Shown: piece by piece, positions 3,895 through 11,558 of the stretch
Layout of the letters: every line of letters starts with the position of its first letter
Numbering within the stretch: position 1 is the stretch's first letter
Source: a virus
Lineage: Duplodnaviria > Caudoviricetes
DNA length: 64,000 nucleotides
Virus record (IMG/VR): IMGVR_UViG_3300009979_000004
Coordinates: 24,837 to 88,836 of that record
Direction: 5' to 3' (one strand)
The notes under the pieces: generated by a model
Told to the model about the DNA's origin: nothing
Databases searched by the model: none
The model's input: only the letters and a program-made list of their open reading frames with translations
Made by a program: the position numbers and the translations under genes

Positions 3895-4076
3895 TGACTA
3901 TGCAATCCGAAAGATTAGGTCAACTAATAGATGAGCTGGATAATCTGGCACATGGGTTACAGATACCGTTAGCTCCTAAGATTCATGTAAAGAATCTAAG
4001 TGTTATATTGCCTGAGCTGGTAAATAAATTCAAGGGATCATTTGTGGAAATCACAGGAGAGAATCCCTGGAAATAA
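3894..4076 (+). CDS. hypothetical phage protein
   Basis: 60-aa ORF coupled to the upstream stop. Confidence 0.7.
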   Translation: MTMQSERLGQLIDELDNLAHGLQIPLAPKIHVKNLSVILPELVNKFKGSFVEITGENPWK

Positions 4077-4425
4077 GGTACTTGGACAGAACCTGTAAGA
4101 TGGTATGCCGGGAAGAGGCAGAATGCAGGAGCTCGCCTTTGGCCAAAGGAAAACCCTGGATGTCCAGGTTAATGCACCATAACTCACGTAGATATGAAGA
4201 CTTCTTACAGGAGGGCAGGCATATTGAGCCTGCGAGGCTCCTGGATCTATCTCAGGAAAGGATGTAGGATGTGAAACTACCTGACTAGCTTAACATGCCT
4301 GCTGGGCTTAGTCAGCTCCCAAGGGTGAGCAGTTGCAGTAGACCAGAAAGTGAACCACCATACTGGGATAAATAGTAAACTATTGCAGCTGAGTGCAGAG
4401 GGAACTAAAATTAGTGAGCCTAAAT
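4077..4425 (+). ncRNA. candidate ~350-nt structured RNA with a pseudoknot, family unknown
   Basis: Many complementary pairs, e.g. 4092-4100/4203-4211, 4215-4222/4295-4302, 4281-4286/4310-4315 and 4330-4341/4380-4391; more G/C-rich than the flanks; no convincing ORF. Strand assumed from the surrounding genes. Confidence 0.65.
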
Positions 4426-4438
4426 AAATCTTAACACT

Positions 4439-4651
4439 ATGCGATATAAAAGACCAACTCATAAAAGACTATCAGACCTCAGTGTTGTTATCAGAAAGAA
4501 TACCAGGAAAGTAAAATGCCTGGAGACAGGAAAAGAGTATGGTTCTATTAAAGAAGCATCTTACTACACAGGAGTCTCTTCAACTTTGATTTCCAGATCC
4601 TGCATACGGGGAGAAACTATAAAAGGATTTACATTTGAATATCTCAACTAA
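4439..4651 (+). CDS. stand-alone NUMOD1/IENR1-type DNA-binding domain protein
   Basis: RKVKCLETGKEYGSIKEAS..TGVS...ISRSC...KGFTFEY matches the NUMOD1 HTH of homing endonucleases; no nuclease domain. Confidence 0.75.
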   Translation: MRYKRPTHKRLSDLSVVIRKNTRKVKCLETGKEYGSIKEASYYTGVSSTLISRSCIRGETIKGFTFEYLN

Positions 4652-11453: not shown

Positions 11454-11536
11454 TCTGGTGTAGTTCAAGTTAGAACCCTGTATAGGTCCTGTAAAAAGGC
11501 TTCAGGCGGTTGGCAGTGCAAGTCTGCTCACCAGAA
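11454..11536 (+). ncRNA. tRNA-like RNA with an elongated anticodon arm (Tyr-GUA-like loop)
   Basis: Perfect 7-bp acceptor TCTGGTG/CACCAGA; D arm GTTC-AAGTTA-GAAC; T arm GGCAG-TGCAAGT-CTGCT; anticodon arm CCTG-tat-AGGTC-[CTGTAAAAA]-GGCTT-CAGG. Confidence 0.75.
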
Positions 11537-11558
11537 CTTAATATAAAAACTATATACA

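Follow-up and report, generated by a model that had tools for sequence, protein, structure and literature searches.

Introduction

Twister ribozymes of type P1 (Roth et al. 2014, cited after PMC6154101 and PMC5113685), exemplified by Osa-1-4 and catalogued in Rfam as RF03160, consist of helix P1, a U/A cleavage site, helix P2, helix P4 with its loop L4, and the returning 3' strands of P2 and P1. The cleavage site, usually U-A with a further A after it, lies in the internal loop between P1 and P2. L4 forms pseudoknot T1 with the 3' strand of that loop and T2 with the strand 3' of P2a, the T2 pairs of Osa-1-4 being G13-C31 and C14-G30. Key positions of Osa-1-4 are A7, C14, C25-27, G30, A46 and G48 (PMC5113685); a G at the base of P2 has been implicated in catalysis, and P1 was reported to be dispensable (PMC6154101, PMC5113685). 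Self-cleaving ribozymes frequently neighbour phage genes, mostly with obscure roles, and for bacterial twisters and hammerheads in such positions a part in processing polycistronic transcripts has already been put forward (PMC6765202). Here we analysed the final 64 kb (hereafter the window) of the 88.8-kb IMG/VR phage record IMGVR_UViG_3300009979_000004. We argue that positions 4155-4406 of its plus strand are likely to form a cis-acting, type P1 twister-class ribozyme that cuts an early transcript.

The gap at 4077-4438 carries twister blocks in twister order

The conserved RNA (~4155-4406, ~250 nt) lies in a 362-nt gap between two open reading frames (ORFs) at 4077-4438. The blocks UAA, P2a, C, P4a, UCCCAAGG, P4b, P5, P2b, GAGGG and, where it forms, P1b follow one another in the order found in twister, in the window as well as in 120 relatives counted without duplicates. 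We checked the Osa-1-4 numbering against the residues given in PMC5113685 (A7, G13, C14, C25, C26, G30, C31, A40, A46, G48 and G54). On this numbering, the counterparts of A7 (A4171), C14 (C4178), C25-C27 (4318-4320), A28/A29 (4321/4322), G30 (G4323), G45-A46 (G4398-A4399) and G47-G49 (4400-4402) were all kept, and the key positions named above carry identical bases in the window. U4170/A4171 corresponds to U6-A7 of Osa-1-4, and G4398 to the G at the base of P2 (PMC6154101, PMC5113685). As in Osa-1-4, L4 contains UCCCAAG, and UCCCAAGG matches U24-C31 except for the last base. As in other twisters, a G-A step precedes GGG, and L4 CCC covaries with the 3' GGG in the T1 pseudoknot, which in the window pairs 4318-4320 with 4400-4402.

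The lineage also differs from known twisters in several respects. Its P5 occupies the optional P5 position of the twister fold and P3 is absent (PMC6154101); no member lacks this long P5 (45-75 nt or more), whereas in known twisters a P5 was reported in ~1%. P1 is short or absent, and a subfamily that includes the window has two extra helices between P4 and L4. Family membership, which rests on architecture, conserved bases and covariation, would place the RNA in a known catalytic class, of which the enlarged form is uncatalogued.

The putative ribozyme belongs to a family found in phage contigs

Relatives of the RNA were found through the DNA polymerase of the phage. The neighbouring small proteins and the 70-aa ORF downstream of the gap were singletons when used as queries and led to no RNA relatives, and neither the polymerase alone nor blastn of GenBank phages yielded any. 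The polymerase has many relatives at 50-72% identity, the closest (72%) being on an 87.6-kb contig. The polymerase alignment A1 was used to fetch 80 IMG/VR loci, which we compared with the gap by blastn and nhmmer. Among these 80 loci the element occurred only in L075, where it is complete, and in L024, where it is cut at the locus end; L075 was the sole collinear match to the gap. L075 encodes a compact RNA made of U/AA, UGCAC, C, ACAA, CUCAU, U, UCCCAAGG, GUGAG, a 12-bp helix, A, GUGCA and GAGGG. Each of these blocks is present in the window, where the 5' blocks (4170-4187) sit 129 nt upstream of UCCCAAGG (4317). An alternative twister register with UAACAUGCC at 4291 was rejected, as L075 placed the 5' half at 4170-4187.

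Pattern searches enlarged the family. A 25-base pattern (L4, P4b and P2b-GAGGG) matched 73 IMG/VR stretches, a looser one that left all but P4, two loop As and the P5 start free matched more than 120 among the matches listed, and an insert-specific pattern matched 27. One metagenome scan gave zero matches to a window-specific 21-mer, and a second added four further expanded members, none close to the window. Across 185,579 prokaryote species (one genome each), a single pattern match was found, on a 3.8-kb contig of a metagenome-assembled genome. Because the matches lie in phage contigs, with this one contig as the single match among the prokaryotes, the putative twister lineage is best described as living in phage DNA, and in its expanded and compact forms it appears to be common in uncultured phages. 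We found no description of expanded twisters in phages in a literature search.

The parse, which presupposed neither the P2 nor the T1 pairing and required an AA after the cut, covered 120 non-redundant elements, of which 98 were compact and 22 expanded. The covariance model R1, built from alignment A2 (46 compact relatives), matched the window element once (39 bits, E 7.5e-8), although its alignment of the 5' half is necessarily misplaced because of the insert. Elsewhere in the 88.8-kb genome, R1 found nothing but the displaced 5' half of the same element.

Some members depart from the common plan. L102:614-988 and L086:618-1047 are tandem pairs of odd elements. Their leading copies contain the cleavage site, P2a, P5 and GAGGG and are missing P4a and a normal L4; the second copies contain arm B (described below), L4, P4b, P5 and GAGGG and are missing the 5' half. 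These pairs could be rearranged, split or decayed twisters. L264:660-1010 is an expanded sub-variant, UGCAC-UAA-CUCAC, that lacks the invariant C; its contig, the same as that of L012, has the closest IMG/VR polymerase (57% identity).

Core helices and the T1 pseudoknot covary

Since kinship inflates covariation counts, we placed weight on distinct pair types and not on cell counts. P2 was UGCAC/GUGCA in 107 of the 120 parsed elements, with compensatory versions UGUAC/GUACA (n = 4) and UGCAU/AUGCA, UGUAU/AUACA and UACAU/AUGUG (n = 1 each). T1 was CCC/GGG in 98 elements, CCA/UGG in 11, and CAC/GUG and CCU/AGG in one each. P4 was identical in 115/120; CUCAU/GUGAG, a wobble, occurred three times and the compensatory CUCAU/AUGAG once. 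The base before the cut was U in 117/120 elements, the counterpart of C4178 was C in 120/120, that of G4323 was G in 118/120, and the G-A step 3' of P2b was kept in 114/120.

In alignment A2, both sides of P5 change at 10 of its 12 pairs, with 87.5% of cells paired. None of 500 shuffles equalled the observed A2 scores, and slid controls fell to 33-47% of cells paired. In P1, both sides change at 5/5 pairs, yet just 65-66% of cells pair in the family alignments. Covariation thus supports P1, P2, P5, T1 and both arms of the insert as elements of the predicted fold. Covarying homologues, whose collection the first-pass annotation of this DNA had suggested, were found; the window's element was the only one with a NUMOD-type ORF downstream.

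Expanded members share a two-arm insert between P4 and L4

In the window, 129 nt forming two arms separate P4 from L4 (Table 1). A common plan for this insert was seen in 13, later 22-28, expanded members. The base helix of arm A varies between GUGG/CCAC, GUAG/CUAC (the window) and GCAG/CUGC; the asymmetric internal loop above it is AUAU(A/G)AAG opposite GAAA and almost invariant, and the upper helix of the family is ACUUCUUA/UAAGAUGU. The internal loop matched no nameable motif and may be a tertiary docking site. Arm B has an 8-bp stem in which both sides change at 6/8 pairs among expanded members, with variants CUGAUUAA/UUAAUCAG, CUGAUUAG/CUAAUCAG and AUGAUUAA/UUAAUCAU. It closes a second variable tip and is followed, after 1-3 bases, by UCCCAAGG. 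Two helices of the first-pass annotation are accounted for in this way, both conserved with compensatory changes: its CTGACT hairpin is arm B and its 12-bp helix is P5. A non-homologous hairpin lies upstream of the core in many relatives, at the same place as the one at 4155-4168.

Table 1 Features assigned to the candidate twister locus, with positions in the 64-kb window
Feature	Position	Strand	Remark
Leader	4077-4154	+	Runs from the 60-aa ORF's stop codon to the ribozyme; contains CCTGTAAGA (4092-4100) and a palindrome (4137-4150)
P0-like hairpin, CCUGG-AUGU-CCAGG	4155-4168	+	Two bases 5' of the predicted cut; P0 label tentative
Predicted cleavage site U4170/A4171, then A4172	4170-4172	+	UAA precedes P2 in the family
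P2 5' strand, UGCAC	4173-4177	+	Pairs with 4393-4397
Invariant C	4178	+	Candidate T2 partner of G4323
P4 5' strand, CUCAC	4183-4187	+	Pairs with GUGAG 4325-4329
Insert	4188-4316	+	129 nt, two arms, between P4 and L4
Arm A	4188-4280	+	Directly 3' of P4a; assigned by parsing expanded members into blocks
Arm A base helix	4188-4191/4277-4280	+	4 bp
Arm A asymmetric internal loop	4192-4199/4273-4276	+	AUAUGAAG opposite GAAA
Arm A helix	4200-4209/4263-4272	+	Conserved U-U mismatch
Arm A tip	4210-4262	+	Three-way, member-specific
Arm B	4281-4315	+	8-bp stem, CTGACTA 4281-4287/TAGTCAG 4309-4315; 16-nt loop holding ATGCCTGC
L4 strand, UCCCAAGG	4317-4324	+	CCC is the T1 5' strand; G4323 is the candidate T2 base
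P4 3' strand, GUGAG	4325-4329	+	
P5	4330-4391	+	12-bp stem 4330-4341/4380-4391 (two G-U pairs), 38-nt tip
P2 3' strand GUGCA (4393-4397), G4398-A4399, T1 3' strand GGG (4400-4402)	4393-4402	+	
Weak P1 3' strand	4404-4406	+	At most 3 pairs with 4167-4169, judged by eye
70-aa ORF, single NUMOD-type helix-turn-helix module	4439-4651	+	Neighbour, not conserved partner

Departures from the canonical fold weigh against cleavage

Several results speak against assigning this RNA to the active twisters. P1 of the window has at most three pairs (4167-4169 with 4404-4406). C4177, the counterpart of G13, covaries with the base 5' of P2b (G4393), since U-A stands in place of C-G in three elements. P2 is thereby five pairs long, the fifth pair replacing the T2 pair equivalent to G13-C31 of Osa-1-4. 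Because the G13 counterpart joins P2, T2 is reduced to at most C4178-G4323; in the 120 elements these two bases are invariant or nearly so and could pair, and G4324 varies with no change of partner. In Osa-1-4 the A40C mutation, thought to extend P2 likewise, was strongly deleterious (PMC5113685). None of the Rfam 15 twister models RF03160, RF03154 and RF02684 matched the window, the whole genome, the loci of twelve relatives or the most compact member alone (126 nt), even at E ≤ 10. The invariance of the core was partly produced by search patterns that fixed those bases. Finally, the nested comparative fold of 4160-4414 reached -66.5 kcal/mol, compared with -75.3 kcal/mol for an unconstrained minimum free energy (MFE) fold with other pairings; pseudoknots and tertiary contacts are counted in neither energy. 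Since T2 is reduced and P2 extended, we regard the lineage as a real structural variant of the predicted twister fold.

Other known RNAs matched the locus less well. The Rfam search suggested in the first-pass annotation found no family at the gap at gathering thresholds in the 64-kb window, where only chance-level hits appeared at E ≤ 10. Twister-sister (RF02681) resembles the lineage in its multi-helix junction and L4-like loop sequence but lacks the double-pseudoknot fold and has a different cleavage context (PMC6154101), unlike this lineage with its covarying 3-bp T1 and U-A-A cleavage context; RF02681 gave no match on the window or the twelve relatives' loci. Group I and group II models gave no match on the window at E ≤ 10. 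A group I intron and a hepatitis delta virus-like fold were both rejected: there was no Rfam match, no split gene and no equivalent of P8/P3-P4. A three-way junction with two hairpins, as in the 2'-deoxyguanosine-I (2'-dG-I) aptamer, is one possible drawing of the arm A tip (4203-4269). The purine/2'-dG-I riboswitch (RF01510) was rejected in turn, as the alignment scored 22.3 bits (E 0.099) against a gathering threshold of 51, with three J2-3 positions missing, and the riboswitch-like tip is member-specific in relatives.

"Ribozyme" was among the options that the first-pass annotation listed for an unrecognised RNA; the twister architecture, key bases and covarying pseudoknot speak against a new class. 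A structured non-coding RNA of ~350 nt had been proposed. The non-coding structure holds, and its conserved part shrinks to the ~250 nt given above, the leader being unconserved.

The locus and its NUMOD-type neighbour

The sole sequencing run containing the stretch is a plant metagenome DNA run, probably its source. The family-A DNA polymerase is ~25% identical to those of crAss001-type phages, and the genome also has rIIA/rIIB-like genes and giant minus-strand ORFs; on these three grounds the phage looks like a distant crAss-like phage. The RNA locus lies inside a long series of small, co-directional plus-strand genes. As the first-pass annotation held, it interrupts no gene: the upstream 60-aa ORF terminates at 4076, and the flanking ORFs are separate genes. 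G+C is 0.47-0.49 in the gap and ~0.35 in the flanks, and the MFE z-score of the gap is -1.89 on the plus strand and -0.81 on the minus strand, which makes a weak case for structure when this one sequence is taken by itself. The leader is not notably structured (z -1.21), and no conservation was found 5' of the cleavage site in relatives (columns 1-10 of alignments A2 and A3). A sigma-70 promoter and terminator scan of the locus was uninformative, no flanking direct repeats marking a cassette were found, and ARAGORN called no tRNA or tmRNA at the gap. A decayed homing-endonuclease gene in the gap was rejected, as the three frames hold no catalytic motif.

Residues 20-69 of the 70-aa ORF match a ~50-aa module with 849 HMMER hits at E ≤ 1e-3, present in 2-14 copies in larger proteins that carry NUMOD1, I-HmuI NUMOD-like, I-TevI DNA-binding and GIY-YIG domains. 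The score against PF22083 was 19.6 bits (E 6.7e-4), under the cut-off of 27. The ORF thus resembles the NUMOD1 and I-HmuI NUMOD-like modules of GIY-YIG and HNH homing endonucleases, but, unlike those enzymes, has one module and no nuclease domain. Its predicted membership in the NUMOD group, already proposed for a stand-alone module in the first reading, rests on HMMER hits to NUMOD-bearing proteins. Across 68 non-redundant members of the family, none of the 64 other downstream ORFs matched the 70-aa protein by phmmer at E ≤ 10. Pfam searches of 65 downstream ORFs returned seven unrelated families with one member each, NUMOD only in the window's ORF. The pairing of the putative ribozyme with a NUMOD-type gene looks incidental.

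A few further features were noted. The motifs AATTATAATGA and AAAACTCAWTT recur at gene junctions (3887-3897/4933-4943 and 4651-4661/4926-4936) and are probably shared translation-initiation or junction signals of early genes. The only tRNA called by ARAGORN in the window was tRNA-Thr (GGT) at 11454-11537. On another contig, a match to the pistol ribozyme model (L088:1398-1457; 33.9 bits, threshold 34.5) lies ~1.3 kb upstream of a twister. The tRNA model of Rfam matched phage tRNA genes at L144:635-755, L144:1002-1117, L122:940-1062 and L084:481-597, with inserts of ~50 nt in the anticodon region; one such alignment shows a 51-nt insert.

Long-range pairings of the window are not shared by relatives

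All sequence strings named in the first-pass annotation were found where it had placed them. CCTGTAAGA (4092-4100) complements TCTTACAGG (4203-4211) over 9 bp, and GCAGGCAT (4215-4222) complements ATGCCTGC (4295-4302) over 8 bp; the former had been read as a helix closing the RNA and the latter as a pseudoknot. The gap holds two exact complements of at least 8 nt, against 0.76 expected from dinucleotide shuffles; 19% of shuffles have at least two of them and 17% a run of at least 9. For the 362-nt gap as a whole, runs of such length are expected and neither pairing goes beyond chance. Tested against its own partner segment only, the 8-nt complement between the arm A tip and the arm B loop was reached by 0.3% of shuffles and the 9-nt complement between leader and arm A by 0.1%, both pairings having been picked after the fact. 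Other expanded members mostly have no comparable complement between the arms, the exceptions being L125 (8 nt, 2% of shuffles) and L122 (7 nt, 20%), and the upstream complement was in no other member examined.

Most of the fold drawn in the first-pass annotation does not hold. Throughout the expanded subfamily a helix is conserved that, in the window, pairs TCTTACA (4203-4209) with TGTAGGA (4263-4269). The closing helix 4092/4203 is overturned because it would destroy this conserved arm A helix; it is also absent from relatives and of chance-level length. The pseudoknot 4215/4295 exists as a complement, but it is absent from relatives, at chance level for the region and placed in member-specific tips. 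The unconstrained MFE fold includes it, at 8.8 kcal/mol below the nested comparative fold.

Weighing the alternatives

A twister-derived RNA might no longer cleave and be kept to serve the downstream gene as a stable, structured 5' leader or as a scaffold that binds protein. Such a loss would fit the almost missing P1 of the window, the replacement of the Osa G13-C31-type T2 pair by an extension of P2 as in the A40C mutant (PMC5113685), the 129-nt insert in the loop that forms both pseudoknots and the lack of any score with the Rfam models. We nevertheless find it unlikely: the counterparts of the essential bases (A7, G30, A46, G48 and the T1 pairs) are kept across 120 elements, the compensatory changes in T1 would be pointless without a catalytic fold, P1 was reported to be dispensable (PMC6154101, PMC5113685), and the few clearly decayed copies look different, having lost GAGGG. 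A second possibility is that cleavage is switchable, with the window's long-range pairings or the purine-riboswitch-like three-way tip of arm A forming a second structure by which cleavage is controlled, perhaps through a ligand or the NUMOD protein. The rarity of both complements among shuffles of their own partner segments, the use of the second one in the MFE fold and the weak alignment of the tip to the 2'-dG-I aptamer are consistent with a switch. This is quite improbable to us, given that the pairings were chosen post hoc, that runs of such length are expected for the whole region, that only L125 and L122 approach the inter-arm complement and no member the upstream one, and that the aptamer score is far under threshold, with the J2-3 core missing and variable filler at the tips of relatives. 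In a fuller version of the idea, the ribozyme fold of this member would face competition from one built of the leader (4092-4100) and the arm tips (4215-4222/4295-4302), which would mask arm A and either hold the two cleavage products together or block folding. A ligand, the protein or transcription timing would then gate cleavage and, through it, expression of the NUMOD-type gene; more widely, the conserved two-arm L4 insert with its invariant internal loop would act as a regulatory or docking domain added to a twister. We rate it as very improbable. We know of no natural twister with a regulatory or docking domain of this kind.

The model drawn from the first-pass annotation has a new pseudoknotted RNA with the NUMOD1-only protein as its partner, the two forming an RNA-protein module or being left over from a mobile intron. 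Only 36 nt indeed separate RNA and ORF, the protein is a DNA-binding module of the homing-endonuclease type, and the ribozyme sequence is shared between otherwise dissimilar phage DNA. Because 0/64 other downstream genes resemble the 70-aa ORF, with NUMOD in the window's ORF only, we do not retain such a module; nor did group I or II models match or the three frames of the gap hold an endonuclease remnant, and a known class explains the RNA. Little credence is left for this proposal. Least of all do we believe that the gap is coding, with ORF 4082-4267 (61 aa, TTG start) as the functional element. That frame is open, but it has no Pfam match, runs through the unconserved leader into the 5' half of the ribozyme and one variable arm tip, and coincides with a region in which relatives conserve base pairs and not codons. 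A twister-class ribozyme thus remains our preferred reading.

Proposed role in transcript processing and exchange between phages

We infer both catalysis and a role in processing. The predicted cut lies ~270 nt upstream of the start codon of the 70-aa ORF, and a co-oriented ATG (ORF of at least 50 codons) begins 25-50 nt after the ribozyme in 32/65 members, at 36 nt in the window. Most likely, the predicted ribozyme cuts an early polycistronic transcript. It would be transcribed together with the co-directional early genes and fold through P2, P4 and the T1 (possibly also T2) pseudoknots, and the folded RNA would cut itself between U4170 and A4171. The upstream message would then end just past the hairpin with a 2',3'-cyclic phosphate, and the downstream message would carry a 5'-OH and be headed by the compact ribozyme body, 36 nt before the next start codon. 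The likely effect is that stability and translation of the two transcript halves would be set independently.

The 3' half of the window ribozyme, including the tip of P5, is 93.6% identical over 94 nt to the compact element L099:9534-9660, and the remaining 14 kb of L099 has no detectable similarity to the window. This identity in otherwise dissimilar DNA points to exchange of the candidate ribozyme as a module between phages. On one 86.7-kb contig, two twister copies (L116:13810-13937 and L117:516-642) share at least 45 identical upstream bases, and their downstream sequences diverge right after the ribozyme, which may lie at a repeat or recombination boundary.

Because this lineage is invisible to the Rfam catalogue, Rfam-based surveys undercount twisters in phages. 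The twister fold appears to tolerate a two-helix domain, from 60 to more than 200 nt, in the loop that makes both pseudoknots, which would be of use to ribozyme engineers and in studies of how the fold is assembled. Its members sit regularly 25-50 nt before small early genes, and the family would thereby give a testable model of how ribozymes process phage polycistronic transcripts.

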